21,415 bases of DNA from a virus (taxonomy: Duplodnaviria; Heunggongvirae; Uroviricota; Caudoviricetes). A program made the position numbers and the translations under genes. Shown one piece after another: positions 1,605 through 21,415 of this stretch (its first letter is position 1; each line of letters opens with the position of its first letter). Under the pieces are notes generated by a model. It had not been told where the DNA came from and made no database searches. It saw nothing but the letters and a program-made list of their open reading frames with translations. Location of the stretch: positions 1 through 21,415 of IMG/VR virus record IMGVR_UViG_2737471822_000004, one strand, 5' to 3'.

Positions 1605-1610
1605 ATTATA
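1605..1610 (-). promoter_or_regulatory. Possible -10 hexamer (TATAAT on minus strand) for the cargo operon
   Basis: Perfect TATAAT about 35 nt upstream of the 282-aa start codon. The region is AT-rich, so a chance match is plausible. Confidence 0.25.
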
Positions 1611-2034: not shown

Positions 2035-2054
2035 TACGTGGGCGTTTTTTCTAA

Positions 2055-2336: not shown

Positions 2337-2884
2337 TCCTGTATATCGTTAATGTCATTCAGGCGTTGCTGAAAATGCAGATGTTGTGCCGGGGTGTAAG
2401 AGTCCTGGCAATCACGAATCATCCCGGGGTCAGGTATCAAACCGGATTCATCCAGGATCTCACGATAATCCCCGGCAATTTCAGGCGGTGTTATTGCCAG
2501 CTGGCGAACCAGAGCACTGCGTAATATACGGGACGCAACGTCAACCCCTCCGCGTCCCTTCAGGAACGGAGCCAGTGCAGATGTCAGGGCTGCCCCATTC
2601 GCCTGCATAAAATTGCTGAGAGCTGCTTCTGTGCAGGCCTCCATCAGTAAATGCTGCGAGTAAATGCATTCGCGCGCAGCACAGTTAATTTGCCATTTCA
2701 GCACATCCAGACGTTCCCGCAGTAATTCGAGCTGTCGGGCATAATCTGCTGGTTTTTCTGTGGCAGCAAGGAGAGATGCTATCTGTTGTTCAACGGCTTT
2801 TCGGCTCTCACTATGTCCGGCCCACAGAATACGGGCATTCCGAAAACTGGTAAGTGCCTGGTCAGGCGTGCCTCGGGCCGTCAT
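2333..2884 (-). CDS. psu: Psu-like polarity suppression / capsid decoration protein (183 aa)
   Basis: Size, all-helical composition and recalled P4 Psu motifs (LKWQIN.AA, FMQ..G.AL..ALAP, YTPAQ). Sits inside the late operon, coupled to sid and delta by 4-nt overlaps. Confidence 0.7.
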   Translation of the reverse strand: MTARGTPDQALTSFRNARILWAGHSESRKAVEQQIASLLAATEKPADYARQLELLRERLDVLKWQINCAARECIYSQHLLMEACTEAALSNFMQANGAALTSALAPFLKGRGGVDVASRILRSALVRQLAITPPEIAGDYREILDESGLIPDPGMIRDCQDSYTPAQHLHFQQRLNDINDIQE

Positions 2885-3624: not shown

Positions 3625-3658
3625 GACTTCTCCTGTCGGGTTGGTTCGTTACGTCAAT

Positions 3659-3714
3659 TGTGTCGTGGCTGACACAAGCACACTATCGGTGATCAGTGTG
3701 TGGTGGCTGGCACA
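3659..3714 (-). promoter_or_regulatory. Late promoter region with two TGT-N12-ACA dyads (Ogr/Delta-type activator binding sites)
   Basis: TGTgtcgtggctgacACA at 3659-3676 and TGTgtggtggctggcACA at 3697-3714, centres 38 bp apart, about 45 and 80 nt upstream of the sid ATG. Confidence 0.6.
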
Positions 3715-3802
3715 ACGGGCGCTTGCGGTTATTCAGACGTGGCTATGAAAGCCAGCCAGATAAAAATGCCCTCTGTTTCAGTCTGCTTTATGTCCCTGAT
3801 GC

Positions 3803-3991
3803 GGTGGAACAGGTGAAACATGTGTTACTGCTTTGTTTTATAAAGTATTTATATACACTGCACCGGTGGAACATCGCGGGTAACAAGGTGGAACAGCGGA
3901 TTGGCTGGCGTTACATCTGTTCCACCTCACTATTTCAGAAGGTGAAACAGGTTCAGCCCTTGTAAAATACGGTTGTTCCACCTGTTTCACC
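3803..3991. repeat. Iteron cluster: 8 copies of 9-mer GGTG(G/A)AACA in both orientations, candidate alpha-binding origin/crr
   Basis: Copies at 3803, 3812, 3866, 3887, 3941 (forward) and 3919, 3974, 3983 (inverted, TGTT(C/T)CACC). Outer pairs form an 18-bp inverted repeat. Located between the alpha stop and the sid promoter. Confidence 0.7.
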
Positions 3992-4025
3992 TGTTACCCT
4001 TAATAAATAAGACTCACGCAAAGCC

Positions 4026-6698: not shown

Positions 6699-7078
6699 AC
6701 TTCCCCCTCATACAACGTCACACCGGTACTGCAGAAGTCATCAAAGGCCGCCGGAAGCGTGCGGTACATCTCCGCCATCACTTCACAGCCGCGCGCGGTC
6801 AGTACCGGCGGCGCGGTCAGCAGTGACGGCTCCAGCATGTCAGTCAGCAGTGCCAGCGCGGCAGCGGCGCCCTGCACTTCGCCGTACTCGTTAATCAGTA
6901 CGCACTCGATATGCAGCGCAATGGCCATTTCAATACGCTCCACTGTCAGGCTGTGCGGACCATACTGATCACTGCCAGTTTCGTTCAGCATTTTCTGCCG
7001 CCATGCTGAAGCAATAGCCCGCCGGTAAAGCGCGGTGGTCATTTCTACCGGGAAAATGGAAACCTGCGGCTGGTTCAT
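6695..7078 (-). CDS. Hypothetical protein (127 aa), immediately upstream of alpha
   Basis: ORF with ATGA stop/start overlaps on both sides. Position is analogous to the small genes preceding alpha in P4 (orf151/epsilon region). No motif recognised. Confidence 0.55.
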   Translation of the reverse strand: MNQPQVSIFPVEMTTALYRRAIASAWRQKMLNETGSDQYGPHSLTVERIEMAIALHIECVLINEYGEVQGAAAALALLTDMLEPSLLTAPPVLTARGCEVMAEMYRTLPAAFDDFCSTGVTLYEGEV

Positions 7079-7359
7079 CTGGCACCTCCTTCAATCAGTG
7101 CGCAGCTGTGTGCAATATCCGTCAAATCTGCCAGCAGGTACTCCATCAGCGCGGCGACACCAGGCGCACAGCCTGCGTCCAGTGCTCCGGCCTGAGACGG
7201 GTATTCAGAAAAGAGAAGCTGGAGCATGTCGCAGGCATTTCTTGCGCGGGTCAGCTTTCCGAAACTGTCCTCTGACAACCCATAGGCAAAAGCACCGGTA
7301 TTGTGTTTTTCAGGCAAAGTGTGGCCCTGAGCACCGTTGAGCCCGTTTGAAATATTCAT
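7075..7359 (-). CDS. Hypothetical protein (94 aa)
   Basis: GGAG 10 nt upstream of ATG. Stop overlaps the next start. Epsilon-like by position and size only. Confidence 0.5.
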   Translation of the reverse strand: MNISNGLNGAQGHTLPEKHNTGAFAYGLSEDSFGKLTRARNACDMLQLLFSEYPSQAGALDAGCAPGVAALMEYLLADLTDIAHSCALIEGGAR

Positions 7360-7390
7360 CGTGAATTACTCCGTTTTCAGCGGTATTTTG

Positions 7391-7750
7391 TCAGAGAAAC
7401 TTTGAATAGTGACCGTCGTCAGGCTCAGCAGAACGCCGTATGGTACGCTCCCGCCAGCGGATAAATAGCACAGACGGATGCAGTGTCAGCGGGCCGGAAC
7501 CACTACTGCCTGCAGGAGCTGGTGCAGGCTTAAAGAGCGGTACATCAAACAGGCGCGTATACCGCTGTTCAAACCATGCCAGAGGGCAGGAAGAAAGCTG
7601 GTTGTCGCTGTCATGACGTATCAGCACTTCACAGCTGAATTCAGGATTAACCAGCGCCACAGAGGGCGAGGCTTCTATTAATCGGATAATCGTGACCGTC
7701 CAGCCACGTTCATGCTGCCAGCGTTCGCCGGGGTGCGGATAATTACGCAT
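7391..7750 (-). CDS. Hypothetical protein (119 aa from the RBS-supported ATG; the ORF extends to 7780)
   Basis: GGAGGTG 5 nt upstream of the ATG at 7750. Overlaps the end of the upstream small ORF by 8 nt. Confidence 0.5.
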   Translation of the reverse strand: MRNYPHPGERWQHERGWTVTIIRLIEASPSVALVNPEFSCEVLIRHDSDNQLSSCPLAWFEQRYTRLFDVPLFKPAPAPAGSSGSGPLTLHPSVLFIRWRERTIRRSAEPDDGHYSKFL

Positions 7751-7919
7751 GTTCACCTCCGCAGGGAATGCGCCCGGCAAAGCTCAGTACATAGTCCGGG
7801 GCAAGTCTGCGCCGCGCTGATCGTTCGTTATCTGCGGTGATCCTTAACATCACAGGACGGGCATTGCGTTGACTGCGGTTGATCGCCGCAAATAACCAGG
7901 TACACTTCTGTTTAGCCAT
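7743..7919 (-). CDS. Hypothetical small protein (58 aa), first gene of the replication operon
   Basis: GAGGT 8 nt upstream of the ATG at 7919. The longer 76-aa ORF lacks an RBS at its first ATG. Confidence 0.4.
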   Translation of the reverse strand: MAKQKCTWLFAAINRSQRNARPVMLRITADNERSARRRLAPDYVLSFAGRIPCGGEHA

Positions 7920-8003
7920 CTTCGTTACCTCATATAACGTGCTGGTCAGACGCCTCGGTGCTGCTGCAAACACTCCGGGGCGTTGCTATTTTGTTTTTCT
8001 GTG

Positions 8004-8047
8004 TGTAATGTGTCATTACACATAAATACATTACAATGGGTGTAATT
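8004..8047. promoter_or_regulatory. Divergent promoter/operator region with GTAATG-type palindromes
   Basis: TGTAATG-tgt-CATTACA perfect palindrome at 8004-8020, further CATTACA (8029-8035) and TGTAATT (8041-8047) half-sites overlapping the start of the plus-strand regulator gene. Confidence 0.45.
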
Positions 8048-8230
8048 GACGTGTCAACACACAAAAATGAAAGACGTGGGAATCCGCCATTCCAGTTCCG
8101 ACTTGACCCTGAACTGCGTGAACTGATGGAACAAGCACAACAGCAGGATGGCGATGAATCGCTAGCGGCTTGGATCAAGCGCATTCTACGCAAAGAGTTA
8201 CAAAGCCGAGGTTTAGAACCAAAGAATTGA
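8036..8230 (+). CDS. Small ribbon-helix-helix-like transcriptional regulator (64 aa), the only plus-strand gene in the satellite
   Basis: PFQFRLDPELRELMEQ... fits the beta-strand then helix pattern of Arc/CopG/ParD-type RHH proteins. Divergent from the replication operon. No clear SD at the first ATG; the GTG at 8051 is an alternative start. Confidence 0.5.
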   Translation: MGVIDVSTHKNERRGNPPFQFRLDPELRELMEQAQQQDGDESLAAWIKRILRKELQSRGLEPKN

Positions 8231-8240
8231 TTAATACGTT

Positions 8241-8263
8241 GGGGAGGCTTTTTTCTCCCCAGC
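8241..8263. terminator. Hairpin between the converging RHH gene and alpA (possible bidirectional terminator)
   Basis: GGGGAG / CTCCCC stem with a T-rich loop. No strong U-tract on either side, so function is uncertain. Confidence 0.3.
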
Positions 8264-8279
8264 TTTGTTAATATTGTCA

Positions 8280-8495
8280 TTACACTACTTCCTCCAATCC
8301 TGCTGATTGAGCTTTAACCCACTGCCTAATTTCTTGTGCATCGTAAACAGATACCCGTTTTGAAATGCGTATAGATTTGGGAAATTCAGGATTGTTCTTT
8401 TCCCAGCGCCAGAGAGTAACCGTACTTATTTGCAAAAAGTCAGCAGTAGCTCGTGGGCGGGCATGTCCAGTGATAGGATAAGTTTTTAATGTCAT
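8280..8495 (-). CDS. alpA: AlpA-family HTH regulator (71 aa)
   Basis: FLQISTVTLWRWEKNNPEFPKSIRISKRVSVYDAQEIRQWV matches the AlpA/Xis-type winged-helix pattern. Typical position between the integrase and the primase operon. Confidence 0.8.
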   Translation of the reverse strand: MTLKTYPITGHARPRATADFLQISTVTLWRWEKNNPEFPKSIRISKRVSVYDAQEIRQWVKAQSAGLEEVV

Positions 8496-8503
8496 GAAAT
8501 TAC

Positions 8504-8531
8504 CTGCCGTATTATGTAATGAACACGGCAG
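8504..8531 (-). promoter_or_regulatory. Stem-loop in the alpA 5' leader
   Basis: 7-bp stem CTGCCGT / ACGGCAG with a 14-nt loop that contains a GTAATG motif, ending 8 nt upstream of the alpA ATG. Confidence 0.3.
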
Positions 8532-8773
8532 ATACTATGGGGATATCAAAATGCTGTGAAGGTAGTGTAATCAACTCTACCTGTAGATTGTTTCAGTCTA
8601 CCCCTTTTGTTTTAATCCCGCATGATTAACCGCTAATCGTAATTTTCTTAAGATTTCTTGTTCATTAGTGATAAATATTGGAGGTAGCTCTCCTAAATGT
8701 TTAATTATGGCGTTAGTCCACTTTTCAGGACTTATCTCTTTTCTTTCACCACGACATTCGCTTGGGTATTTTG

Positions 8774-9481
8774 CTAATATATATATATGGCTGCATTTAA
8801 TAACCCCTCCCTATTTTTTGCATGATGCTCAGCAGTGTTATTTAATCGCTTGGGGATTTTAGGTTCAGATGAAATTCTTTTCGTAAGTAAACTTGGCATA
8901 GGAATTCCAGTTTTTACTGATTTCCATATTAACTCTAAATCTCTTCGCATGATAAGAAGATCTTCAAATGGAATCTCAATGACCTTATTTCCTTCATATG
9001 AGGCCGTTGCCATCAAAACATTATCTCGTATTTTTACCGGTTTAAGCCTGAATTCATAATCTGGATCTATAGCTAATCCATTTTTTATGTCACTTATCAT
9101 ATCATCGGCGTACCAAATACCACAGGCAAATCCTATAATTTGAAGCCCATTTTCAAAATGTTCAAAGGAATCATCTTTAAGGTCATACCATATTGTTGAA
9201 AATTCCATCTCTAGTGATTGATTAGTTAATACGGGATGAATTAAGTCAATTTCCATTTTCTGATTTTTATTGAGGAAATTAACATTAAATCTAACTGCAA
9301 GTCCATCCGCCTTGAATGCGATATTAAAAGCGCCTATTTCGTATAGATGTAATAAATCATCAATCTCGCATTCTAATAGTCTTGAAGCGCGTTCAAATGA
9401 ACAATATTCTAATGGTGGTATTTTTTTGTCAATCCATAGATTTCCTAAGAATATAGTTTCATTCTCTGTTGAATGCTGCAT
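8774..9481 (-). CDS. Hypothetical protein (235 aa), AT-rich cargo gene between integrase and alpA
   Basis: Long ORF with GAGG 7 nt upstream of ATG, 30 nt downstream of the integrase stop. Lower GC than neighbours. No motif recognised. Confidence 0.6.
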   Translation of the reverse strand: MQHSTENETIFLGNLWIDKKIPPLEYCSFERASRLLECEIDDLLHLYEIGAFNIAFKADGLAVRFNVNFLNKNQKMEIDLIHPVLTNQSLEMEFSTIWYDLKDDSFEHFENGLQIIGFACGIWYADDMISDIKNGLAIDPDYEFRLKPVKIRDNVLMATASYEGNKVIEIPFEDLLIMRRDLELIWKSVKTGIPMPSLLTKRISSEPKIPKRLNNTAEHHAKNREGLLNAAIYIY

Positions 9482-9511
9482 TATGACCTCTGTTTTAAAT
9501 TATAAGAGTAT

Positions 9512-10846
9512 TTAATTGATAATGTTAATACCTGATAAGTCATAAGGAGCATGGAATTCGTCCTTATTTAGTTCCAGATAATTAGACCACCATTGCATCA
9601 TTCTGCGGCGTTCCTGCATGTGCTGCGCAAGATGCACATATGCTGCCCGCACTTCGTTTCTTTCTTGGTGACTCATCTGCCGTTCAACTGCATCGCGTGA
9701 CCAGAGTCCTGATTCGGTCAGTGCAGAGCAGGCCATCGCCCTGAACCCATGCAAGCAAACATCAGTTTGAGTGTCGTAACCCATCGTTCGCAGTGCTTTA
9801 TTAACTGTGTTTTCGCTCATCGGTTTATATGGGTTGCTGTCACCGGGAAAAACCAGCAGATATTCACCACTGATTTTCCTTATATCCTCCAGTACCCCGA
9901 TAGCCTGACTAGATAGCGGGACATAATGAGCAGCCCCCATCTTTGCACCCCGATCTGAGAATTTAACCCCTGCGATCTCTTCACGTTGTCCTGGTATCGT
10001 CCATAGCCCATTTTCAATGTCGATCTCCTCCCATCTGGCATGTCGTAGTTCGCTGGATCGCACAAAAGTGTGCAGGGAAAAGAGAACTGCTAGGCGAGTC
10101 AATGGTCTTCCCGTGTAACTTCTCGTTTTCGCTAACAGTTCAGGTAAACGTTCGAGAGGTAGTGCGGGGCGATGTCGTACTTTGGGGGCCGTAATTGCAC
10201 CTTTTAGATCGTGGGCAGGGTTGTAATCGACAATTCCACGTTGCACGGCATAACGGAAGATGCTCGTCATAGTGGTTTTTACACGGCTCGTTGTGGCACC
10301 AATTCCTTTCTCAGTCATCTCAACCAGCATCGGCATCAAGTCACGGGTTTTGAGCGTATCGATAGGCTTTGAACCGATGGCAGGAAAGAGGTGGTTTTCC
10401 ATTTCTCGGAGAATTTTTTTACGGGTGATCTCTTTCCACTCAGGATGCCCCATCGTTCCACTATGCCACTCTCTGGCAACACTCTCGAACGTGGGGGAAA
10501 TTGGGTCTTCCTTTTTGGGTTTCTTTGCTTCGCGAGGATCACGACCATCGGCTAGTAGTTGCCTGGCTTCATCACGCCGTTTCCGCGCTGTTGCAAGTGA
10601 GACATCTGGGTAGACCCCTAATGCTAATGTCACTTGTTTTCCATCAAAACGATAATTCATACGCCAGTATTTTCCACCAGTCTTTCGTACCAGTAGATAC
10701 AAACTCCCTCCATCGGTAAGTTTGTAATCATTGGTCTTCGGCTTGGCGTTTTCTATCTGTTTGGGGGAAAGCACATTAATGGCCATATCTGTACTCATTT
10801 TGGTAAATTGATGGTATCTGCATATCGAACTGGGGAATACCATCAC
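9512..10846 (-). CDS. Tyrosine recombinase, P4-family integrase (int1); probable true start at 10786 or 10798
   Basis: N-terminal arm-binding domain (KLTDGGSLYLLVRKTGGKYWRMNYRF...VTLALGVYPDVSLATARKRRDEAR) and C-terminal catalytic region (HGFRA...RAAYVH...RRRMMQWW). The canonical N-terminus begins at MAINVLSPK. Confidence 0.9.
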   Translation of the reverse strand: MMVFPSSICRYHQFTKMSTDMAINVLSPKQIENAKPKTNDYKLTDGGSLYLLVRKTGGKYWRMNYRFDGKQVTLALGVYPDVSLATARKRRDEARQLLADGRDPREAKKPKKEDPISPTFESVAREWHSGTMGHPEWKEITRKKILREMENHLFPAIGSKPIDTLKTRDLMPMLVEMTEKGIGATTSRVKTTMTSIFRYAVQRGIVDYNPAHDLKGAITAPKVRHRPALPLERLPELLAKTRSYTGRPLTRLAVLFSLHTFVRSSELRHARWEEIDIENGLWTIPGQREEIAGVKFSDRGAKMGAAHYVPLSSQAIGVLEDIRKISGEYLLVFPGDSNPYKPMSENTVNKALRTMGYDTQTDVCLHGFRAMACSALTESGLWSRDAVERQMSHQERNEVRAAYVHLAQHMQERRRMMQWWSNYLELNKDEFHAPYDLSGINIIN

Positions 10847-11057
10847 TTATACCATCACGAGGTTGTAATGTCATGAAATTAACTGAAATGAAAATCAGGC
10901 CGATTCGGTGATAACTTACTGTTTTTTTAAGTGGTTATGTAATGAAGTGAAATGTAGAGAAAGGTCTTTAAAGTGTCCCTGCAGACATCTACTTGAGGCG
11001 GCAGGGGGTTGATTAGAATGGTGTTTTTTAGATTTGAGAAATATTTTACCCGCTATT
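10847..11057. other. Inter-element junction: candidate att site region, duplicated alpA start segment, and direct repeats
   Basis: Contains a second copy of the 16-mer TAATGTCATGAAATTA that overlaps the alpA start codon (10866-10881 versus 8487-8502), a tRNA 3'-end-like GTGTCCCTGCAG (10963-10974), and a TATTTTACCC direct repeat at 11042-11063. Confidence 0.35.
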
Positions 11058-11258
11058 TTACCCATTCGCGCGGCTTAAGAGCTTATTTTTGAATTCACAA
11101 TGGTCACGATATAACCATCTTGCTCGTCCGTGGATAACTTTGGCTTTAGGCAGGTCGCCGGACTTAATCCGGTCATAGATGAAGGTTTTACCAAAGCCAG
11201 TATCAGCCATGATGAATTTCAAATCAACCAGTGAATCAGGTTGTAGTTCGTGTTGCAT
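11058..11258 (-). CDS. torI: TorI-like excisionase / recombination directionality factor (66 aa, AlpA/Xis-type winged helix)
   Basis: 66-aa protein MQHELQPDSLVDLKFIMADTGFGKTFIYDRIKSGDLPKAKVIHGRARW... with an HTH_17-like pattern. I recall this as the E. coli KplE1 TorI sequence. GGAGA upstream of ATG. Lies at the prophage end opposite the IntS-like integrase. Confidence 0.65.
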   Translation of the reverse strand: MQHELQPDSLVDLKFIMADTGFGKTFIYDRIKSGDLPKAKVIHGRARWLYRDHCEFKNKLLSRANG

Positions 11259-11300
11259 GAGTGCTATCTCCGAATAGGGAATCGAACCTGCAAATCAGGC

Positions 11301-11323
11301 AATAAAAAACCGCATTGATGCGG
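11301..11323 (-). terminator. Rho-independent terminator at the end of the early operon
   Basis: Minus-strand hairpin CCGCA-ucaa-UGCGG followed by UUUUUUAUU, between the 114-aa gene and the torI-like gene. Confidence 0.6.
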
Positions 11324-11382
11324 CAATGGTAGGTCTGGATATCTTGAGAAATGAACGGGCCTCATCGAGTGTGAGGCTGTGG

Positions 11383-11727
11383 TTAGTCCTTGCGTAACTC
11401 GCTAATTCTTCTGTAAGTCTCTGGTGCTTTGTTTCCGTGTATCTTCATTTCAGACTTCAACAGAGCAACGAGAGAATCCCATTCGTTGAGGATGCCTTTG
11501 AATGCCGGAACGCGCTTTGCAACCTTGTCGAATGAATCCCTGATTTCTGGAATCTGCTCGACAAGCGCAACGCATCGCCGGAAGTCGGCTACGTCATGTG
11601 GAGCGCCGAAGTGATGACCATAGATATTCTTTTTCAGTCCACATGCGATTGAGGCAAGAGTTGCGCTACTGATGCCAACATCGCCAGTCGATTGCCATTT
11701 CAAAACCTTCATAGCCAAATCTGACAT
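11383..11727 (-). CDS. Hypothetical prophage protein (114 aa)
   Basis: ORF co-oriented with the early operon. No motif recognised. Confidence 0.5.
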   Translation of the reverse strand: MSDLAMKVLKWQSTGDVGISSATLASIACGLKKNIYGHHFGAPHDVADFRRCVALVEQIPEIRDSFDKVAKRVPAFKGILNEWDSLVALLKSEMKIHGNKAPETYRRISELRKD

Positions 11728-11799
11728 TTCTTGTCTCCATAAAACAAAACTCGCCGTAGCGAGTTCAGATAAAAGAAATCCCCGCGAGTGCGAGGATTG

Positions 11800-12084
11800 T
11801 TATTCATTGCCGATATTCACCTTTATCGCGAACACCTTTACCGGTTTATCGCCGAAGTGCGGATGTGTGATTGTCTTGATTTCATATCCGTCATACGGGA
11901 CGTCAATTCTGCGGCTGGAATCGTCGCGCTTCGGATATCCCTTTGTGATAATCAGGCGGTCATGCTTACGGTTAACGAGGCGCTTTTTCCAGTAGTCATT
12001 ACACAAGCGATACTCTTCCGTTTTCTCCCCGCGAATCATGGCATCGAAGTATTCACCTTTGACGGCAAGTTGCAGGTTAGCCAT
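11800..12084 (-). CDS. ASCH/DUF3850-like small protein (94 aa from the ATG at 12084)
   Basis: MANLQLAVKGEYFDAMIRGEKTEEYR resembles the N-terminal pattern of ASCH/DUF3850 proteins. GGAGGTG 7 nt upstream. TAATG stop/start overlap with the upstream gene. Confidence 0.55.
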   Translation of the reverse strand: MANLQLAVKGEYFDAMIRGEKTEEYRLCNDYWKKRLVNRKHDRLIITKGYPKRDDSSRRIDVPYDGYEIKTITHPHFGDKPVKVFAIKVNIGNE

Positions 12085-12344
12085 TACCGCACCTCCAGTT
12101 TCCATACCGCCTGACCAATCCGGCTGGCATAGGTATCTTTGGATACTGCTCCGTCTTTAGCCAGCTCCATAAGAATTTTGCGCAAATCTGCCGAACGCCA
12201 TTCTTCATCAGGAAATTCCTTCTCCATTGCCAACCGCAGATTCCAGGTTGCTATCGTGAATGGATATTCCCCGCCGAGAGCTTTCTCTTGCAGGGCAGAA
12301 CGGGAACGCATCACCTGCAAAACCTTCTCTTTTACATCCATCAT
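12084..12344 (-). CDS. Hypothetical prophage protein (86 aa)
   Basis: ORF translationally coupled to both neighbours (4-nt overlap with the DUF551 gene, 1-nt overlap with the ASCH-like gene). Confidence 0.5.
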   Translation of the reverse strand: MMDVKEKVLQVMRSRSALQEKALGGEYPFTIATWNLRLAMEKEFPDEEWRSADLRKILMELAKDGAVSKDTYASRIGQAVWKLEVR

Positions 12345-13342
12345 TTTGCCTCCTGCGGCGGTTCTGGTAGTGGCATCCAGTGTGTGACATTGCTAATCAG
12401 ACCATATTCATTAGTTTGAGGATGGTTGCCGTTATCGTCTCCGTATTTAAGACTCTCCATAAAACCATAATGCTTATTCCCATTAACGCTCACAAAGCCG
12501 TAATAAGCAGGTATAACGCCGATCTCACACGTAACCAGCAAAGGAAAACCAGTTCTCCAGTTTAGTTCACCGATTTCAGGCATTCGATCACTACAGCTTA
12601 TCCAACTATCCGGAGTTACCGGAGAGTTGCCCGATAGCGCGTTCTGCAGTCGCTCCAGCTTCACGTATTCCTGAACCCTGTTTCCGTCGCATGCCTGAAG
12701 CCATTGCGCAGCCTTTTGCGCATCAGTGTGAAAGGCACAAGTGCGACCGTCATCAAATTGCATTTCGTAGAGGTCAGCAACTTGTTCAAACTGCGTGTGT
12801 TGTGACTTGTAAGTTTGGCTTACAGGTTCGGCTTCCAGTTCTGCTATGCGCTTCTCTGTGGATTCCAGCGCTGCAACCAATTCGTCTACAGTTCCGGCAG
12901 CTTGCAGTGCGTAATCGGTAATAGCCATCTCATGATCAATTTCAGTACCGTTCTCATTCGTTGAGGTGATAGCAAAATAATCAGAGTCGATTTCGTTATC
13001 AGCTAAGTGGCGTAGCGTATCGGCAACAAGCTGGCCGTTTTCGATTAGCAGCCTCCCAACCGTAAGCGCAATATCCTCGTTCTCCTGGTCGCGGCGTTTT
13101 ATGTATTGCTGGTTTCTTTCCCGTTCATCCAGCAGCGCCAGCACGGTTTCTGGTCCGGTCAGAAATTTGAAGGCGTTGAGCGCATCAATATCCACACCGT
13201 AATCTTTAAGTTCCTGTTCACTTAACAAATCATCATCAGCTGGCAACATTAACAGGCGTTCCATTGCTGGAATTGCACGTTCCGCCGCCTCACGCAGTGC
13301 CTGGTAATTAATTTCGCTCACTGGTTGCCTCCTTTGCGCCAC
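12341..13342 (-). CDS. DUF551-domain phage protein (333 aa), Ea22-like early-region protein
   Basis: C-terminal [10 protein letters not shown]...LLVTCE...YYGF...[12 protein letters not shown] matches the DUF551 pattern common in lambdoid early-left operons. Acidic N-terminal region. Confidence 0.65.
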
Positions 13343-13501
13343 ATCGCATTCAGATATTTGTTTTGATTCACTGATGGAAAAGAATTTCTCTTAAGCAATT
13401 CCTCTCTCGATGGCATTGGCTTTACGCGTTGGCGAATAATCATTTCCGCCGGAAGAATTCCGGGATTGTATGCAAGTCCTCTCATGGTAAATTCCTCTTT
13501 G

Positions 13502-13816
13502 TTAATTTATTCGTATGCCTGTTCTCTCTTCATCGAGTTTTTTTAGCTTGTATCGCATAGCTCTTACTGAATAAATTGAGCGGCAGGTTGCAATTGCTAT
13601 TTCTTCTGCGGAGAACTTACCGAAAAGTGATACTTCGGCTCTTGTCCATCGTCTTCCACGAAGTCGGCTAACAATGTCAGCGCCAATCCTTGTTGCTTTC
13701 GCCATTACTGCTTTTTCAGTCCTTTCCAGTTTTTCAGCGATAACTTCAACTGGCATTGTCGCCGCCACTTCGCGCAAGAAATCGACTTCCCATTTCTCCC
13801 ATGGAGTCTTTTTCAT
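13502..13816 (-). CDS. Hypothetical prophage protein (104 aa)
   Basis: ORF in operon context. Basic C-terminus. No firm family. Confidence 0.45.
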
Positions 13817-13827
13817 AGGCGATACCG

Positions 13828-14316
13828 TTATTTGATAAGAAGTGAAGGTTTCCCAACTTTGAGTTGAGCGCCGGGGATATTTATTCCTGCTTTTAGTTGG
13901 TGCTTGATTGCCAACTTGTCGGCTTTAATTGTCGTTTCGAACTCAACGTATTCAGGAGGAAGGGCGCTTGAGTCGATGATTTCTACAATTTCTGACGGTT
14001 TGCGGATTGTTACCTGGTGAATACCTGCTCGAATATTTTTCTTGCCAACCATTTCAAGCGATGACGCTATATATGATTTGATGCTGTCAATCTTATTTTG
14101 AATTACTGCGGCTCGCTCATTCAGTGACTTTGCCTCTTCCTTGAGGCGTTCAGCATAAGCAGATTCATTTTTAATGACGGAAAGAAGTTGCTCTATTTTA
14201 TCGGTAAATTCTCCTTCCATGCCTTCTATTGTGTCAGCAATCATCTCTGGTTCTAAATCTGAATCCATCAATTTTGCGTATTCATTGGCAATTTCATACA
14301 GTTTGCTCACTGGCAA
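13828..14316 (-). CDS. Sipho_Gp157-like protein (162 aa), frequent partner of RecT/Erf recombinases
   Basis: Coiled-coil N-terminus and C-terminal ...IKADKLAIKHQLKAGINIPGAQL... pattern. Start overlaps the 3' end of recT. Confidence 0.5.
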   Translation of the reverse strand: MPVSKLYEIANEYAKLMDSDLEPEMIADTIEGMEGEFTDKIEQLLSVIKNESAYAERLKEEAKSLNERAAVIQNKIDSIKSYIASSLEMVGKKNIRAGIHQVTIRKPSEIVEIIDSSALPPEYVEFETTIKADKLAIKHQLKAGINIPGAQLKVGKPSLLIK

Positions 14317-15205
14317 CCTCCAGTTTCGCTTTGCATTCTATGTAAATGGCTTGTACGTTCTGCTGTAATTTCATTCCAGATGTCAGGCGATATGCTTCTG
14401 CAAAATATCGCTTCAAATCATCCATGTTTTCTGCCTGAGCCATTTCATCGCAAAGAAGTTGTACTTTATCCATTATTTCCTGCTGGCGTTTCCGTTCATC
14501 TTCGCGGATATCTTCCTCTGATTTGTGCGGCATAACTGGTTCAGTCCACACACCTTCTTCTTCGTTTAGTACGTGAATAGCACTATCAAGACGTGATGCC
14601 TTAGGCCAATACTTGCTTGCACGCTTTACGACCGTCTTTCGCGCCATCTCATTCCAGTGATTTACCCATGGTCCTTTATCGCTGAATGCCGCCTTGCTTG
14701 TTTTCCTTACAGCCTCAATTTCAGCCAGACTCATCTCTTCCGTTAGATAATCACCTGCTGGCGTCTTAACTGTGCAGTAAACGCCAACGATATCACCGCG
14801 ATCACCGAAGGCGTTGTATTTATGGGTTGGTGCTTTATCAAGCCCGTTTGACTCATAGGTATCGTTAGCATGAACAAGTTTTGCCTGACCCCATGAGATA
14901 ACACCAGACTCCATTGCAATATGGAGCAACCCCATATAACTGATATCAAGGCACACCATGCCGTCGCGCGGAACCAGATAAGCCAGTTTGCTAGCCGGGT
15001 TTAAGGTGATGCCGATCGCCGCAACATTGATGATGGCGTTCTGTGCGCTGGTTGGATTTGCCAGTGCCGTTTTAGCCAGGTAATCGTTTTTCTGGAAATA
15101 CTGAATTGCAAACTGGCTTTCCTTAGCCCATGTCACCGTCTGTTCAGTCAATGCTCCGCAGAATAACTGCTCCTGCTGTTTAACGAATTCAACGATATTG
15201 CTCAT
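14294..15205 (-). CDS. recT: RecT-family single-strand annealing recombinase (303 aa)
   Basis: GPWVNHWNEMARKTVVKRASKYWP matches the conserved RecT motif (Rac RecT: GPWVTHWEEMAKKTAIRRLFKYLP). Family-level call. Confidence 0.8.
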   Translation of the reverse strand: MSNIVEFVKQQEQLFCGALTEQTVTWAKESQFAIQYFQKNDYLAKTALANPTSAQNAIINVAAIGITLNPASKLAYLVPRDGMVCLDISYMGLLHIAMESGVISWGQAKLVHANDTYESNGLDKAPTHKYNAFGDRGDIVGVYCTVKTPAGDYLTEEMSLAEIEAVRKTSKAAFSDKGPWVNHWNEMARKTVVKRASKYWPKASRLDSAIHVLNEEEGVWTEPVMPHKSEEDIREDERKRQQEIMDKVQLLCDEMAQAENMDDLKRYFAEAYRLTSGMKLQQNVQAIYIECKAKLEVASEQTV

Positions 15206-15513
15206 GCTGCTTCTCCAAAAATGTGTCTGCGCTTGAATATTGCGAAGGCATATTCAGCCTTAACTCTTTCGGTTATTGCATCCCAGAACCATTCAGCGGC
15301 TTTTTCCTGATAGTTACAGTCATCATCTTCCAGCCAGTCGATAGCGTCCTTAGTGTGTTCATCTGGTTTATATGAGCGAAGCATTTCGCTTATTGGGTCG
15401 CAACGTTTGCAGAGGCGATCAACTTCACTGTTGATTCGTTCGTAATCTTCATCAGTAAAACTTGCGATTATTTGCGATATTTCACGCTTATCATTCAGAG
15501 TCAGAATCATCAT
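15202..15513 (-). CDS. Hypothetical prophage protein (103 aa)
   Basis: ORF with 4-nt overlap to recT. Acidic. No motif recognised. Confidence 0.5.
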   Translation of the reverse strand: MMILTLNDKREISQIIASFTDEDYERINSEVDRLCKRCDPISEMLRSYKPDEHTKDAIDWLEDDDCNYQEKAAEWFWDAITERVKAEYAFAIFKRRHIFGEAA

Positions 15514-15598
15514 CTTTCTCCTGTTCTTTGTGCTGATTGAGCATTTTGTTCATCTGACGAATGAATTCTTCGTCTGACCAGTTATCCGTAAAACTCAT
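15491..15598 (-). CDS. Possible small ORF (35 aa, acidic C-terminus)
   Basis: Below the ORF-track cutoff. Its ATG overlaps the stop of the upstream 56-aa ORF (ATGA) and its 3' end overlaps the 103-aa start. Supported only by coupling geometry. Confidence 0.25.
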   Translation of the reverse strand: MSFTDNWSDEEFIRQMNKMLNQHKEQEKDDDSDSE

Positions 15599-15765
15599 GG
15601 ACGGCCTTGTTGTTTCAAAATATCCCAAAGCTTTTCGAGCAAACTTTTCATTCTTGGTTGTTTAAAGTCTGCTCCGGTTAAAATATTTTTTCGTGAATGC
15701 TGTACCGATAAAATCGGGTTGAAAGGGCGAACCGATGCCGCCCCTGCAATAGCGAACTGTTGCAT
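15595..15765 (-). CDS. Possible small protein (56 aa), leader gene of the early operon
   Basis: AAGGAG 6 nt upstream of the ATG at 15765. The longer 91-aa frame has no RBS at its first ATG. Confidence 0.3.
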   Translation of the reverse strand: MQQFAIAGAASVRPFNPILSVQHSRKNILTGADFKQPRMKSLLEKLWDILKQQGRP

Positions 15766-15825
15766 AGGATGCTCCTTCTGTTTGATTGCATAACGAAAAC
15801 GCCTCGAGTGAAGCGTTATTGGTAT

Positions 15826-15855
15826 GCATATAAAAAGGCCCTCACACTGGAGGGC
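15826..15855 (-). terminator. Rho-independent terminator downstream of the 108/141-aa gene
   Basis: Minus-strand hairpin GCCCTC-cagugu-GAGGGC followed by CUUUUUAUAU. Confidence 0.6.
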
Positions 15856-15961
15856 AAAGAAGACTTCCAATAATCAGAACAAGTCGGCTCCTGTTTAGTT
15901 ACGAGCGACATTGCTCCGTGTATTCACTCGTTGGAATGAATACACAGTGCTTATTCGCAGC

Positions 15962-16288
15962 CTACATAATCATTCCGGTTATTATTACCATTTCAATATC
16001 ACTATCTTTCATAATGATTGGAGTTGAGTTATCAACTTTACTTTTACTCCATTTTCCTGCATCAGTTTTTAACGCTCCACAATAAGAAAGCCAATCATCA
16101 TCACAATGTTCTGGAACACTAATTCTGACAAGAACACGTGATAGTGCTTTTTCGATACTTTCATCACAATTAGCATTTGTGTAATTGCCGTGAGACAATT
16201 TCAAATCGTTAACTTCATCTTCATTGGCATCAAAAATATAGATTTCAGTCGACTCTGGAACATTTTCATAAACCATTAAAACTTTCAT
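15962..16288 (-). CDS. Hypothetical protein (108 aa from the ATG at 16288; the ORF is open to 16387)
   Basis: GGGG 5 nt upstream of the internal ATG (MKVLMVYEN...). Own terminator downstream. AT-rich. Confidence 0.45.
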   Translation of the reverse strand: MKVLMVYENVPESTEIYIFDANEDEVNDLKLSHGNYTNANCDESIEKALSRVLVRISVPEHCDDDWLSYCGALKTDAGKWSKSKVDNSTPIIMKDSDIEMVIITGMIM

Positions 16289-16392
16289 TTTTACCCCATA
16301 TTGTTTATGCCAAAAATAAAGGCCACCATCAGGCAGCCTTTTTGTAAATGTTGCAGGTATCAAGTAAGTAATTAGATGGAGCGCCATAAATT

Positions 16393-18099
16393 ATGAATTC
16401 ATCGTTTGTCGGGTCCATCTCCATCTCTTGGCCTATTGCCATTCTTGCGTCAGTGTCATCAGAGGCGAAGCATAAAACAGCCCCCGTCACCATCCCAGGA
16501 GACATCATTATCGATGCTTCTACTGGAGAATTTACCTTCAATGGCATTGATTATATTTTCCATCCGCTTGGCGCAAAATCAGTAGAGATTATCGGCGGTA
16601 AGTTCACCGCAAATGCATACCACACCCAGCGTCCTCAGGTAATTTTCAATGATTACCCTGATGGGCTGGAGAATTTACCAACGCGCGTGGTGATAAAAGA
16701 TATGCAATGCTTTAACTGCGGTGTTGGCTACATCATGGTTAACTGCCAGGACCCAACAAGCATCCACGTTACGGTTGATAACAACTACTGTAAGACTGAT
16801 GACAACACTGACCAGTATATCTCTGATGCGGGTATGTCAGGTGGGCAGGGTGAGGTATACCCATATCTGATGATTCTTGGTAATACGACAGAATCCGTCG
16901 ATATTGGAACGCCTCGCAAGTCAATGTTCCATGTGACCAATAATACCTTTGATGTTTTTATGCAGAGTGGTCCTAATGCAGATTTGGGTAAAGTTGGTGG
17001 TACTACGATAGGCGGCAATGTTAACGGCAATCTTTTCTGCAACAGGAATACGGAATGTGCATGCGAATTTGACACTTTTACTGGTGGTCTTGAAGTATCT
17101 TTAACATCAAACCGTTTTGTTAACACTGCCATTAAAATGATGTCAATGCAATTTGATAGCAGCACTCGCGTCGGATTAGGTGGTAGATCTTCAATATCGA
17201 ATAACGTATTTCATTTTGAAGAAAATCCGTTAAATGACTTTGCAATATTCTTACGGACATCACTTGTTAGCATATCTAATAATGTTTTTTATTACAAAGG
17301 TGCGAGCATTCCATCAGATCAGAGGATATTTAACTTTATAGCATCACAGGCGCTCAACAATAGTAACAATGGTTTCAACGGAACATGGTGCGCAGGTATT
17401 AGTATCACCGGTAACACAATGCAAATGGTGTTAGACCCTGCCGTAAACACGTCTCTAAGATTGCAATGTATTAACCCGACTGATATGTCAGGAGCGGTTA
17501 TATCGGGTAATTTTATGGCGGGCGGAGTAGGAATGGTGCTTAACGCCAGACCAGAAAGAAACAGAAACGTATGGACAGGTAACTTCATTACGTCAGGGTT
17601 ATTTACGGCAGAAGATATCTGGCGAATGAACTCAGCTTTTGTAGGTTCAGGGAACTACATCGGCAATGGTTATGATAATACGGTTAATGGCATAGCAATG
17701 TTGAGCAAGACTATACCCGCGGTATCAGATGGTTCAAAGATAAGAATTACTCTTGACCAGCAGATATTAACCGGGGCTGCATCTGACCGCTCACTTTACC
17801 TTCTCCACATAAAAGTAACCGGTGGGGTAAAAAACAACTACGCTACATATATCATGTCTTCTGGTGCGCATGACGCAACAGCAAGAGCCGACGCAACTGA
17901 CCTTAAACCCCCTATTGACCAGCGTTTAAACCCAGGAGATACTTCCATTGCAAACCTGCAAAGTTGCTTTAAAGCCGGATACAATGGAAGTGGGTATATT
18001 GTGCTTGAGGCCCTTTCAACATTCAGCGCGGCAAATCAGCCACCAACAAAAATTGAATATGCAATAGTACCATTATCAACAAACTTCCCAACGCTGTAA
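16393..18099 (+). CDS. Parallel beta-helix protein, probable phage tailspike / receptor-binding depolymerase (568 aa)
   Basis: Repetitive Gly/Asn/Thr-rich sequence with recurring ISNNVF / ITGN / ISGNF motifs typical of right-handed beta-helix tailspikes. Adjacent to an O-antigen acyltransferase. No recognisable P22-type head-binding N-terminus. Confidence 0.55.
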   Translation: MNSSFVGSISISWPIAILASVSSEAKHKTAPVTIPGDIIIDASTGEFTFNGIDYIFHPLGAKSVEIIGGKFTANAYHTQRPQVIFNDYPDGLENLPTRVVIKDMQCFNCGVGYIMVNCQDPTSIHVTVDNNYCKTDDNTDQYISDAGMSGGQGEVYPYLMILGNTTESVDIGTPRKSMFHVTNNTFDVFMQSGPNADLGKVGGTTIGGNVNGNLFCNRNTECACEFDTFTGGLEVSLTSNRFVNTAIKMMSMQFDSSTRVGLGGRSSISNNVFHFEENPLNDFAIFLRTSLVSISNNVFYYKGASIPSDQRIFNFIASQALNNSNNGFNGTWCAGISITGNTMQMVLDPAVNTSLRLQCINPTDMSGAVISGNFMAGGVGMVLNARPERNRNVWTGNFITSGLFTAEDIWRMNSAFVGSGNYIGNGYDNTVNGIAMLSKTIPAVSDGSKIRITLDQQILTGAASDRSLYLLHIKVTGGVKNNYATYIMSSGAHDATARADATDLKPPIDQRLNPGDTSIANLQSCFKAGYNGSGYIVLEALSTFSAANQPPTKIEYAIVPLSTNFPTL

Positions 18100-18102
18100 A
18101 TT

Positions 18103-18138
18103 TGTGCGCACTATGAAAAAGTTAAATAGTGCGCACAA
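18103..18138. terminator. Bidirectional terminator between the converging tailspike-like and acyltransferase genes
   Basis: About 10-bp stem built on the self-complementary GTGCGCAC (18104-18111 and 18130-18137), followed on the plus strand by TTATTTATATTA. Confidence 0.55.
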
Positions 18139-18147
18139 TTATTTATA

Positions 18148-20103
18148 TTATATATCGATAATTATATTTCCAAACCCTTCAATTGCCTTTCTTGCTCCAT
18201 ATCTTGATAGATGATACTCATCAGAATACATAACGTCACCTTTGTCAGATACTAGGTTACATCTCCCATTCCTACACATGAAATCATAAGGGTTTATAAA
18301 CTTTATACTTCCGTTATCTGATAGCCATTTGTTTAAATAATTATTGCTATCTAACCTATCACCGCTTTCTGTACTGAAAATACTATCAATGCATTTCTTT
18401 TCAACATATGAAGGGCGACTCACACAAGAAAGACCACCGTCAGAGCCTATTGCTGCCGGGTGGCTTCCAATAACAATTACTTCCTGATTTGTGTACTCTT
18501 GAATATTTTTAATAACGGATGCATTGAATTTCATATAATCATTATTCCCGTTGAACTTATAAATGTTACCATCTTTATCAGATAACATTTCAATGTATCT
18601 AAGCCATGACTGAGCATAAACAAGTGGTATCTTATTATTTTTCGAGTAATCTATCGCTTTGGTTCCAATCTTCACGCCATATACAGAAATCTTGCCTTTT
18701 TCTGTAACGTAAACGCTATTTGATAGATACGCTCCATCAGCGAAGAATGCAACAGCTGATATATTTTTCTTTGCAAGAAACTCACTCATGGCTAATGAAT
18801 ATTGTCTTGCATAACTATCTCCCATGAAGACAAATGATGGTTTTTGTGTTTTATCTCCAAGAACTACCATTTCACCTTGCTTAACCCCAAAGCCTCCGAA
18901 TAAATATTCTTTAAATCCAGGCTTGAGCATTTCCATGTTTTCTTTATAATTTTGTATTCTAAATGCAAATCCGTTGTCTTTTATTGAAGATGAATACGAA
19001 ATCATAACCAATATAGTTAATGATAAAAACAATACTGATTTGTAGCAAAACTCATTTATTTTTATCTTTCTGAATTTATTTTCTATTGCGTTGTACATTA
19101 AGAATCCAACAGCCAGCGAAGATAAAATCAATGATGCTTTCTCGATATCATTTAACTCTCTATATATCCAGTATTTGTAAAACACAATAATAGGCCAGTG
19201 AATTAGATAAACTGAATACGATATCAGGCCTATCGTAACGCTGACCCTGTTATTCACAGCGAAGCCAGCGTATTTTGCATCATGTGAAAGAATGCAAAGC
19301 ATGGCACCCAATACGGGAATCATGGCATGCAAACCAGGGAACTGAGTTGATGATGAGTAAAGCAACGCAGATGATACTATCATCGCAAGTCCCGCAGCCA
19401 TCATAGACTCCTTCATTAGTTCAGATGGTTTTATCCATCGAGAAATGAAGAATGCGAGTCCGCCGAAAGACAACTCAAAAACCCTGAACGGCATCCAGTA
19501 GTATGCTTCAGTTTGCATGTTTATAGTTGCCCACTGAGAGGATGCCAGAGAAGCAATACTAATAATAACCAGAACCCATGGCACAAGGCTCTTTTTTACT
19601 AAATATGCTACTCCGATAATCAGAGGCCATACAAGATAGAACTGCTGTTCAACACCAAGGGACCATGTGTGCAACAATGGATTTATTTCTGATGATGTAT
19701 CGAAATAACCAACGCTTTGTGCAAAAAATATATTTGATGCTGAATACAACGCATATATTGCTGATTTAGATACACTAACAAAATCAGAAGGTGAGTACAG
19801 AATAAAGCACCCAGCAAAAACGGCGATCAGCGTTGCTATAAGAGCCGGGTACAGTCTTGCTATCCTGGCGAACATGAAATTAATGTAACTGAAAGTTCCC
19901 TTCTCAGTTTGATTAAAAATTATTCCAGTTATCAGATAACCAGAAATAACAAAAAATACATCAACGCCAACAAACCCTCCGGGAACACCACTGAACCCTA
20001 CATGGAATATAAGAACTAAAATGACGGCAACAGCACGGAGTCCATCAACTCCTGGCTGGTAATTTTTAGACAATGTTTTGTCAGTCTTCAAAAGAAAGCT
20101 CAT
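18148..20103 (-). CDS. Acyltransferase-3 family O-antigen acyltransferase with C-terminal SGNH domain (OafA/Oac-like, 651 aa)
   Basis: N-terminal GLRAVAVILVLIFH...GGFVGVDVFFVISGYLITG acyltransferase_3 signature, multiple TM segments, and C-terminal FVFMGDSYARQY (GDS motif). AT-rich. Confidence 0.85.
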   Translation of the reverse strand: MSFLLKTDKTLSKNYQPGVDGLRAVAVILVLIFHVGFSGVPGGFVGVDVFFVISGYLITGIIFNQTEKGTFSYINFMFARIARLYPALIATLIAVFAGCFILYSPSDFVSVSKSAIYALYSASNIFFAQSVGYFDTSSEINPLLHTWSLGVEQQFYLVWPLIIGVAYLVKKSLVPWVLVIISIASLASSQWATINMQTEAYYWMPFRVFELSFGGLAFFISRWIKPSELMKESMMAAGLAMIVSSALLYSSSTQFPGLHAMIPVLGAMLCILSHDAKYAGFAVNNRVSVTIGLISYSVYLIHWPIIVFYKYWIYRELNDIEKASLILSSLAVGFLMYNAIENKFRKIKINEFCYKSVLFLSLTILVMISYSSSIKDNGFAFRIQNYKENMEMLKPGFKEYLFGGFGVKQGEMVVLGDKTQKPSFVFMGDSYARQYSLAMSEFLAKKNISAVAFFADGAYLSNSVYVTEKGKISVYGVKIGTKAIDYSKNNKIPLVYAQSWLRYIEMLSDKDGNIYKFNGNNDYMKFNASVIKNIQEYTNQEVIVIGSHPAAIGSDGGLSCVSRPSYVEKKCIDSIFSTESGDRLDSNNYLNKWLSDNGSIKFINPYDFMCRNGRCNLVSDKGDVMYSDEYHLSRYGARKAIEGFGNIIIDI

Positions 20104-20257
20104 TATTCATCCGTATTCATTCTTTTTTGCTGTGCTGATATTAGCACTGACATCGCCACCGATCGACTTTTGAAGTGGTAACTAGGCGAAAACGGGATAC
20201 ACAAAGCTTTGCACTTGATTGCAAGGCGTTGTGCTCTTCGATAGTGGTTAAGGTGGA

Positions 20258-21415
20258 TCACTCTGGCTTTTCATCAAGCCAGTCCGCCCACCATTGCATC
20301 ATTTCTCTGCGCTTATCGAGATACTGAGCATGGTTGTAAATTCCACGTACAGATCCGCCGTTGGCATGTGCCAGTTGCACTTCAATGGCGTCGGCAGGCC
20401 ATTCGTGCTCGTTCATAATCGTGCTGAATTCATGCCTGAATCCGTGACCGCTTTCCAGACCCTCATAGCCGATTTGTTTGATCACAAGCAGTACCGCGTT
20501 CTCGCAGATTGGCTTCTTCTTATCGTTGCGCCCGGCAAAAACAAACTCTGATACTGGTTTGGTGATTGAGCTTAGCGTAGTGAGAAGTTCAACCACCTGG
20601 TCTGACATCGGGACCACATGAATTTTGCGTCCCTTCATCACACTGGCGTCGATGGTGATAATCCTGTTTTCAAAATCTACGTTCTTCCATTGCATGGAAC
20701 GAAGCTCTTTCGTTCTTAGGGCTGTGTAGCGTAAAACTTTGGTCGCAATGAGCGATACGATACTTCCTGAAAATGTTGCAAGTGCTTTGTTGAATGCCGT
20801 GATCTGGTCGGCAGGTAAAAACGGGAAGTTCTTCTTGCGGTATCCCTTCATGGCGTCAGCAAGGTCAGGTGCCGGGTTATATTTAGCCCTACCAGTAACA
20901 ATAGCGTAGCGGAAAACCTCGCCGCATCTTCTGCGGGCTTTGTTGGCTCGCTCCATTGCACCGCGATCTTCAAATCTGCGGATTACTTCCAGCAGTTGCA
21001 TCGGCTCAATATCCTGAATTTCAAGGCCGCCGATGATGGGTAAAATGTCGTCATCAAACATTTTGGCAAGTTCAGTTGCATAGCCTACTGACCAGACTTG
21101 CTTCTTGTGCTCGTACCATTCCTTGTAAATCGCACTAAAGGAATTGTTGTTAGACGAAGCCTTTTTCGCCTTTACCGGATCGATGCCAACCGAGATGTCT
21201 TTCCTCGCAGTCCATGCCTTATCCCTTGCCTCCTGCAAAGTCATTAGCGGATATTTTCCTACGGTCAGGATTTTCTCCTTACCGTCAATCTTGTAGCGAA
21301 GCTGCCATACCTTTTTCCCGGATACAGGGACATAAAGGTACAGGCCATTACCATCGAGAAGGCGGTATGGTTTTTCTTTCGGCTTTGCTGCTTCAATCTG
21401 CTTAACGGTGAGCAT
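20258..21415 (-). CDS. intS: IntS-like tyrosine integrase (385 aa); ATG sits exactly at the window edge
   Basis: MLTVKQIEAAKPKEKPYRLLDGNGLYLYVPVSGKKVWQLRYK... N-terminus and C-terminal HGFRHEF...GIYNHAQYLDKRREMMQWW catalytic region. Recalled as near-identical to E. coli K-12 IntS (CPS-53/KplE1). Upstream region and att are outside the window. Confidence 0.85.
   Translation of the reverse strand: MLTVKQIEAAKPKEKPYRLLDGNGLYLYVPVSGKKVWQLRYKIDGKEKILTVGKYPLMTLQEARDKAWTARKDISVGIDPVKAKKASSNNNSFSAIYKEWYEHKKQVWSVGYATELAKMFDDDILPIIGGLEIQDIEPMQLLEVIRRFEDRGAMERANKARRRCGEVFRYAIVTGRAKYNPAPDLADAMKGYRKKNFPFLPADQITAFNKALATFSGSIVSLIATKVLRYTALRTKELRSMQWKNVDFENRIITIDASVMKGRKIHVVPMSDQVVELLTTLSSITKPVSEFVFAGRNDKKKPICENAVLLVIKQIGYEGLESGHGFRHEFSTIMNEHEWPADAIEVQLAHANGGSVRGIYNHAQYLDKRREMMQWWADWLDEKPE

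Follow-up and report, generated by a model that had tools for sequence, protein, structure and literature searches.

The stretch of DNA analysed here (21,415 nucleotides at its full length; hereafter, the window) carries a torI excisionase gene, a leftward recombination operon, an orphan gene of ~100 aa, a hairpin, a divergent tailspike-like ORF and an intS integrase gene, and thereby poses the question of whether this short arrangement is a prophage which has lost its interior and, if so, at which point the surviving ends were joined. All parts of this layout, as described by the original prediction, were found. The prediction had further proposed a large internal deletion with its joint inside 15855-16393; alignment to the full-length argW prophages of Escherichia coli E62 and CFSAN064035 confirms the deletion and locates both of its endpoints, but the actual joint lies at 16480-16483, ~90 bases to the right of that interval. 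The element extending from 10975 to argW (10.6 kb) very probably derives from a P22-like temperate phage of the Sf6/HK620 type, integrated in argW by an IntS/TorI module and reduced to this remnant by a single deletion of ~30 kb.

Locus and ends of the element

The 21.4-kb window consists of three blocks, i.e. a low-GC block, a P4-like satellite and the remnant element (Table 1). Homology to genomes bearing the P4-like satellite stops at 10984, while phage homology begins at 10973. A contig almost identical to the window (L006; 2 mismatches per 10.5 kb) continues after intS into argW (L006 15185-15259), yfdC, mlaA, yfdF and fadL. These neighbours of intS therefore assign the locus to E. coli argW, at which K-12 carries the cryptic prophage KplE1/CPS-53. 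Neither flank, i.e. the P4-like satellite or argW-yfdC-mlaA-fadL, holds the missing phage modules. The Rfam scan of the whole window gave no RNA family, and a PADLOC search with the 108-aa orphan gene and the low-GC cargo carried by the adjacent satellite gave no defence system.

Table 1. Coordinates of the blocks, genes and sequence features (window numbering; operon genes in order).
Feature	Positions	Strand	Description
Low-GC block	1-1800		~30% GC, two ORFs
P4-like satellite	about 1828-10984		TOPRIM/DUF927 primase, psu, ogr/delta gene, AlpA, own integrase (9512-10786)
Remnant element	10975 to window end		Bounded by torI and intS
attR core	10975-10986	.	GTGTCCC-TGCAG, one C less than the canonical KplE1 core ATGGTGTCCCCTGCAG
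torI	11058-11258	-	Excisionase (recombination directionality factor), intact, 66 aa; phrog_66
Early-left (pL-type) operon	11383-15765	-	Pfam and PHROG matches, gene calls in identical contigs
Operon gene, phrog_1229			114 aa
Operon gene			94 aa
Operon gene			86 aa
Operon gene, Ead/Ea22 + DUF551	12341-13321
Operon gene, DUF2737	13318-13485
Operon gene			104 aa
Operon gene, Gp157/Gam-like	13828-14310
Operon gene, RecT	14294-15205		PF03837
Operon gene			102 aa
Operon gene	15595-15765		56 aa
Two terminator-like hairpins	15798-15817 and 15838-15855	-	In the gap that separates the 56-aa gene from the orphan gene
"Orphan" gene	15962-16288	-	108 aa; phrog_4658, E=4e-38, full length
Terminator-like hairpin	16318-16341	-	10-bp stem, 4-nt loop, T-run
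3' fragment of 83-aa gene	16329-16479	-	~50 of 83 codons; phrog_2471, WP_000394302.1; left deletion endpoint
Chimeric ORF	16393-18099	+	568 aa; P22-type tailspike from codon 30 on, the 29 codons before it antisense to the 83-aa gene
Deletion joint	16480-16483	.	GCCC, 4-bp microhomology common to both parents, inside the "tailspike" ORF
Acyltransferase	18148-20103	-	AT3-SGNH (O-antigen acetylase type), intact, 651 aa; PF01757 + PF19040
intS	20258-21415	-	Integrase, intact, 385 aa; Pfam arm-binding and catalytic integrase domains

Both ends of the element are close copies of those known from K-12: IntS is identical to K-12 IntS at 383 of 385 residues, while TorI is 100% identical to K-12 TorI as well as to WP_001163428.1. 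Their arrangement is that of an IntS-TorI module, in which intS points inward beside argW and attL (~165-250 bp past the window end; in L006, argW is immediately upstream of intS) and the torI-type directionality factor gene comes last, beside attR, with the attR core 72 bp past its stop codon.

To place the attR site, attR and attL were aligned together with the phage Louie attP in a three-way comparison. The duplicated 16-nt att core of KplE1 is CTGCAGGGGACACCAT (PMC2951348); attL in L006 equals this canonical 16-mer and the attR copy reads AAAGTGTCCC-TGCAG. Compared to the core, attR shows two substitutions, which are common to the full-length tandem relatives, and a lineage-specific deletion of one nucleotide, by which four Cs in the full-length tandem relatives (L004 and L015; GTGTCCCCTGCAG) are reduced to three in the window and in seven related attR-containing loci (GTGTCCCTGCAG). 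The K-12 KplE1 excises (PMC2951348). The excision competence of the remnant, with intact intS and torI genes, is uncertain because its attR core is one C short of that in the full-length tandem relatives. Under the improbable reading of a domesticated element, this lineage-specific loss may lock the DNA in place.

An exact 16-nt direct repeat, GGAATCGAACCTGCAA (11278-11293, also inside argW), was considered as the att core and rejected, as it would put torI outside the element; the Louie attP alignment and the published core also rule it out and lead to 10975-10986. All the IntS/TorI elements examined have this 16-mer as a conserved sequence ahead of (upstream of) their torI/xis gene.

The joint and the two genes it cuts

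Comparison of the stretch 15400-18200 with 5426 complete E. coli genomes (megablast) gave no genome covering both halves (0/5426). Matches to the left half stop at 16491 and those to the right half begin at 16476, leaving an overlap of 16476-16491, within which the crossover was mapped by three-way alignment and base-by-base comparison using AST198 and E62 as representatives of the left and right parents, respectively. The window equals AST198 at 100% up to 16483 and E62 at 100% from 16480 through at least 16539, with base 16479 diagnostic of the left parent and base 16484 of the right parent. Therefore, the crossover is the shared GCCC at 16480-16483, which lies in a patch of loose similarity.

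On the left, the deletion ends inside the 83-aa gene, which in intact prophages directly follows the antiterminator gene N. It is beside N in AST198 as well as in the full-length CFSAN064035 prophage at argW, with the complete gene annotated at L003 6781-7032 and L015 7527-7778. On the right, it ends at codon 180 of a P22-type tailspike gene (718 aa at full length in E62). With its two endpoints so placed, the 568-aa ORF is thus chimeric. Its first 29 codons exist by accident, the antisense strand of the 83-aa gene being read through in frame; the N-terminus starts MNSSFVGSISISW... and the 29 new residues (MNSSFVGSISISWPIAILASVSS...) are rather hydrophobic. The original prediction had overlooked that, between the hairpin and the joint, the 83-aa gene survives as a 3' fragment and the tailspike is truncated at its N-terminus.

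By BLASTP, residues 30-568 of the ORF correspond to E62 tailspike residues 180-718 with 92% identity, and the ORF matches the phrog_29018 profile at positions 153-691 of 694. The Head_binding domain (PF09008), which occupies residues 1-113 of the E62 and CFSAN064035 tailspikes, is absent, and the C-terminal receptor-binding/depolymerase part is present by sequence match. A Pfam search with the ORF gave no match, nor was there a significant sequence match to any solved structure, and its identification relies only on PHROG and the E62 homologue. A promoter scan of the plus strand upstream of the ORF gave none, with the total promoter count at chance level. The ORF is a headless, truncated chimera instead of an intact tailspike or receptor-binding gene. 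The part retained would encode the complete receptor-binding/depolymerase portion of the tailspike.

Retained segments, losses and known relatives

Phages Louie, Dewey, HK140 and others have early regions with 96-98% nucleotide identity to the early-left operon, of which the product of the 56-aa gene gave no match in a Pfam search. The original prediction had set the orphan gene and the hairpin at 16318-16341 at an abrupt joint; both occur as native early-left features at the same positions in relatives. The orphan gene, annotated at the same coordinates, strand and length (108 aa) by the gene callers of most assemblies, keeps its position in other E. coli prophages (e.g. WP_001735521.1 of AST198) and is, as judged by this conservation, a native part of the early-left module and not a deletion scar. 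Pfam gave no match for the orphan or the 83-aa gene, and the PHROGs families of both are of unknown function. The hairpin has a folding energy of -15.2 kcal/mol, which by itself is unremarkable (z-score only -1.7). It occupies the corresponding position, with 98-100% identity, in AST198 and the full-length CFSAN064035 argW prophage. Because the latter carries the same hairpin after the 83-aa gene beside N, it can be regarded as a native, intrinsic-terminator-like element of an N-antiterminated operon, downstream of the 83-aa gene, and not as a scar. The region 15500-16700 holds three terminator-like sites against 0.8 +/- 0.9 expected from shuffles, and the operon, which has neither promoter nor antiterminator and contains three terminator-like hairpins, is probably silent.

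The extent of the loss can be estimated from two full-length relatives at argW. The 40.4-kb IntS...TorI prophage of E62 has the same acyltransferase-tailspike-intS end and all of the missing modules, in the order argW-intS-acyltransferase-tailspike-Arc-ejection proteins-needle-head-terminase-lysis-Q-nin-replication-cII-cro-repressor-early left-torI. The 39.9-kb prophage of CFSAN064035, which, as in the window, lies in tandem with a P4-like satellite, holds the 83-aa gene, N, the repressor, and the replication, lysis and head genes. The remnant measures 10,607 bp from core to core; the deleted length is ~30.9 kb by the breakpoints mapped on CFSAN064035 and 29-30 kb by length differences, i.e. 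an estimated loss of about 30 kb. Between the TorI and IntS ends, where the absence of immunity, replication, lysis, head and tail-shaft genes had been predicted, profile searches (Pfam, PHROG) and gene calls agree that repressor, replication, lysis, head and tail genes are missing. Judged by the full-length relatives, the losses include N, the 5' portion of the 83-aa gene, the early-left promoter/operator, the repressor/cro/cII immunity region, replication genes, nin region, Q, lysis genes, terminase, portal, scaffold, coat, head-completion, needle and ejection proteins, the Arc-type immI region and the tailspike head-binding domain. With both endpoints mapped on full-length relatives and the essential modules gone, the element is a defective prophage, of which the promoterless early-left operon, the headless tailspike ORF, the intact acyltransferase gene, intS and torI remain. 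The view that only recombination functions and the surface-modification/receptor-binding end were retained is thus upheld by the relatives for the segments themselves, but not for the tailspike, which is a headless chimera. The acyltransferase, the lysogenic-conversion cargo, shows 97% identity to its counterpart at the equivalent place in the full-length E62 prophage; in one sample of the lineage, its gene has a 7-bp frameshift.

The experimentally studied defective prophage KplE1/CPS-53 of E. coli K-12 (10.2 kb; Panis et al., 2010, PMC2951348) resembles the 10.6-kb remnant in its argW site, in having intS by argW/attL and torI by attR, in the O-antigen-modification cassette adjoining intS and in the absence of repressor and structural genes. 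Nevertheless, DNA homology between the two is confined to the ends (1.2 kb at intS and 0.4 kb at torI), and the attR core of the remnant is one base shorter. The K-12 interior holds gtrABS-type genes (yfdGHI), tail-fibre fragments, and replication and nin fragments, while that of the remnant holds the AT3-SGNH acyltransferase, the headless tailspike and a nearly complete early-left operon of the RecT type; with their interiors unrelated, the two therefore decayed independently. The remnant shares its end order (argW-intS-(acyltransferase)-tailspike and early-left operon-torI-attR) with the full-length Sf6/HK620-type argW prophages and phages (E62, CFSAN064035; Louie, HK620, Sf6), at nucleotide identities of the retained segments from ~87% (tailspike, E62) to 100%, but lacks their ~30 kb of immunity-to-ejection genes and the tailspike head-binding domain. 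A further remnant prophage, near sbcB in AST198, shares the early-left segment made up of the 56-aa gene, the orphan gene, the hairpin and the 83-aa gene and is also internally deleted, with a truncated N fused to a truncated DNA-transfer (ejection) gene and with the early-left operon, tailspike and acyltransferase left; unlike the remnant, it has another integrase, another site and other breakpoints, and its tailspike keeps the head-binding domain. The element is, therefore, an ordinary decayed E. coli prophage of the already known KplE1/CPS-53 kind, i.e. a fresh example arising from an independent decay event.

Origin of the remnant and its significance

Most simply, the joint would result from one illegitimate recombination at the 4-bp GCCC, by either replication slippage or microhomology-mediated end joining, which would have linked two unrelated points of a ~40-kb prophage, one inside the 83-aa early-left gene just downstream of N and the other at tailspike codon 180; the early-left promoter, N and the repressor would have been lost along with the interior. 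We infer both the single event and the type of mechanism: a microhomology of 4 bp is too short for the mechanism to be proven from sequence, and a single joint cannot tell whether earlier, smaller deletions came first. Moreover, no single sequenced genome has both parental sequences in one prophage, and the parent was pieced together from two mosaic relatives, with AST198 or CFSAN064035 supplying the left side and E62 the right; the tailspike of E62 is identical around the joint but shows only 87-89% nucleotide identity as a whole.

A joint within 15855-16393, for example at a break in similarity near 15950 or at the hairpin, would be suggested by the many genomes that lose similarity at 15950-15957 and by a hairpin that looks orphaned between divergent genes. 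However, AST198 aligns across 15550-16491 in a single piece (99.4%), ~20 other genomes match 15400-16491 (mostly in 2-3 pieces), and in ES5, as read from its annotation, the same stretch continues into a prophage which still has repressor and replication genes. The hairpin is likewise a native terminator, intact lambdoid prophages run colinear with this interval, and the break near 15950 is ordinary lambdoid module mosaicism instead of a deletion scar, all of which make a joint in this interval highly improbable. A position at a short shared sequence, where assemblers can misjoin, might also point to a chimeric contig built from two prophage regions with a short repeat in common. This explanation has a negligible probability: the shared sequence is merely 4 bp, the flanking chromosome agrees on either side, 23 contigs encode exactly this chimeric protein, and an identical 70-bp junction occurs in the 8 loci examined, which come from different samples and independent NCBI and Logan assemblies and differ by 1-2 SNPs per 10.5 kb. 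Because it is identical in at least 8 independent assemblies, the junction is not an artefact but a stably inherited marker of a clonal lineage.

Small size (10.6 kb), intact integrase and directionality factor genes and the adjoining genuine P4-like satellite would all suit a natural compact satellite or PICI-like element, composed of integrase, excisionase and cargo and devoid of structural genes by design. Such a layout, which is excluded by a joint that cuts two genes mid-frame, is scarcely plausible on other grounds as well, as replication/primase, packaging-redirection and regulatory modules are absent from 10975-21415 (profile searches), the retained DNA is, by segment, 87-100% identical to true P22-like phages and prophages, and primase/helper-type genes occur only in the separate neighbour (1828-10984), which has an integrase of its own and a separate boundary at 10984. 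Prophages generally decay by degrees, and a stepwise course would make the present joint the last of several deletions or rearrangements and not the product of one 30-kb event. Further decay is seen within the lineage (the loss of 1 nt from the attR core and, in one sample, the 7-bp frameshift in the acyltransferase gene), and K-12 CPS-53 keeps several unrelated internal fragments, implying multiple events there. Nevertheless, the remnant has only one discontinuity, both sides are colinear with intact prophages up to the joint and no internal fragment of any deleted module survives; a stepwise course is considered unlikely. Even less probable is a domesticated remnant in which a free tailspike fragment and the acyltransferase would remodel the host O-antigen or block superinfection. 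As for the preferred reading of a prophage reduced by a single deletion, the remnant may persist as it is harmless, with no lysis or replication genes, and perhaps as it is useful via its acyltransferase.

The reduction of a 40-kb P22-like prophage to a 10.6-kb KplE1-like remnant has thus been resolved to the base, providing a lineage-specific junction that can be used as a strain marker as well as a correction for the 568-aa ORF, which is likely to be annotated as a tailspike gene and is a truncated chimera. The case is an independent addition to an existing pattern and opens no new question. Together with K-12 CPS-53 and AST198, it follows a pattern in which the integrase/excisionase ends and the O-antigen-modification cargo are kept, while lethal and structural genes are removed. 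Such retention fits the accepted picture of prophage domestication.

Short sequence features of the remnant

The attR core of the IntS/TorI remnant carries a C-run that is shorter by 1 nt, with three Cs in the window as well as in the related loci of the remnant lineage (L006-L008, L010-L012), and four Cs in the full-length prophages that lie in tandem with a P4-like satellite (L004, L015). From these sequences, the 1-nt deletion in attR is specific to the remnant lineage, and excision might be impaired by it. Upstream of torI, at a distance of 20 bp from its start, the 16-nt sequence GGAATCGAACCTGCAA matches the argW T-arm exactly. This 16-mer was found in all fetched loci that include torI, and it is also present in the related phage Louie, where it lies 20 bp upstream of xis. 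Just downstream of the stop codon of the 108-aa orphan gene, a 17-nt inverted repeat (imperfect, 82% complementary) falls at the mosaic boundary (~15950-15957), where the similarity of many genomes ends.

Features of the window
Feature	Position	Strand	Remark
Low-GC satellite cargo, psu-side end	1-1800		29-34% GC; two ORFs, 234 and 282 aa
P4-like satellite	1828-10984		
Low-GC satellite cargo, integrase side	8774-9481		29-34% GC; 235-aa ORF
Satellite integrase	9512-10786	minus	
attR core	10975-10986		
argW T-arm copy	11278-11293		
Inverted repeat	15913-15950		

The P4-like satellite at argW

At argW, the remnant stands in tandem with a complete-looking P4-like satellite, which encodes a TOPRIM/DUF927 primase, psu, ogr/delta, AlpA and an Icd-like gene. 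Other strains (L004 and L015, the latter CFSAN064035) show this tandem arrangement too, there with a full-length prophage next to the satellite. The satellite holds low-GC cargo both at its psu-side end, in a location that resembles the P4 defence hotspot, and adjoining its integrase; PADLOC gave no hits on this cargo.

Related prophages, islands and the acyltransferase cargo

An independent internal deletion was observed in another P22-like prophage, near sbcB in E. coli AST198 (L003, 7041-7703), where a truncated N gene is joined to a truncated DNA-transfer gene; as in the remnant, the early-left operon, tailspike and acyltransferase are left. Beyond torI/attR of the full-length argW prophage of E. 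coli E62 (L014, 40861-43869), a different integrase and sce7725/sce7726-family genes constitute another tandem island at argW. Within the remnant lineage, the acyltransferase of one sample (SRR18481751; L007, 11756-13704) is split by a 7-bp deletion into ORFs of 417 and 158 aa, and the cargo is therefore not maintained universally.
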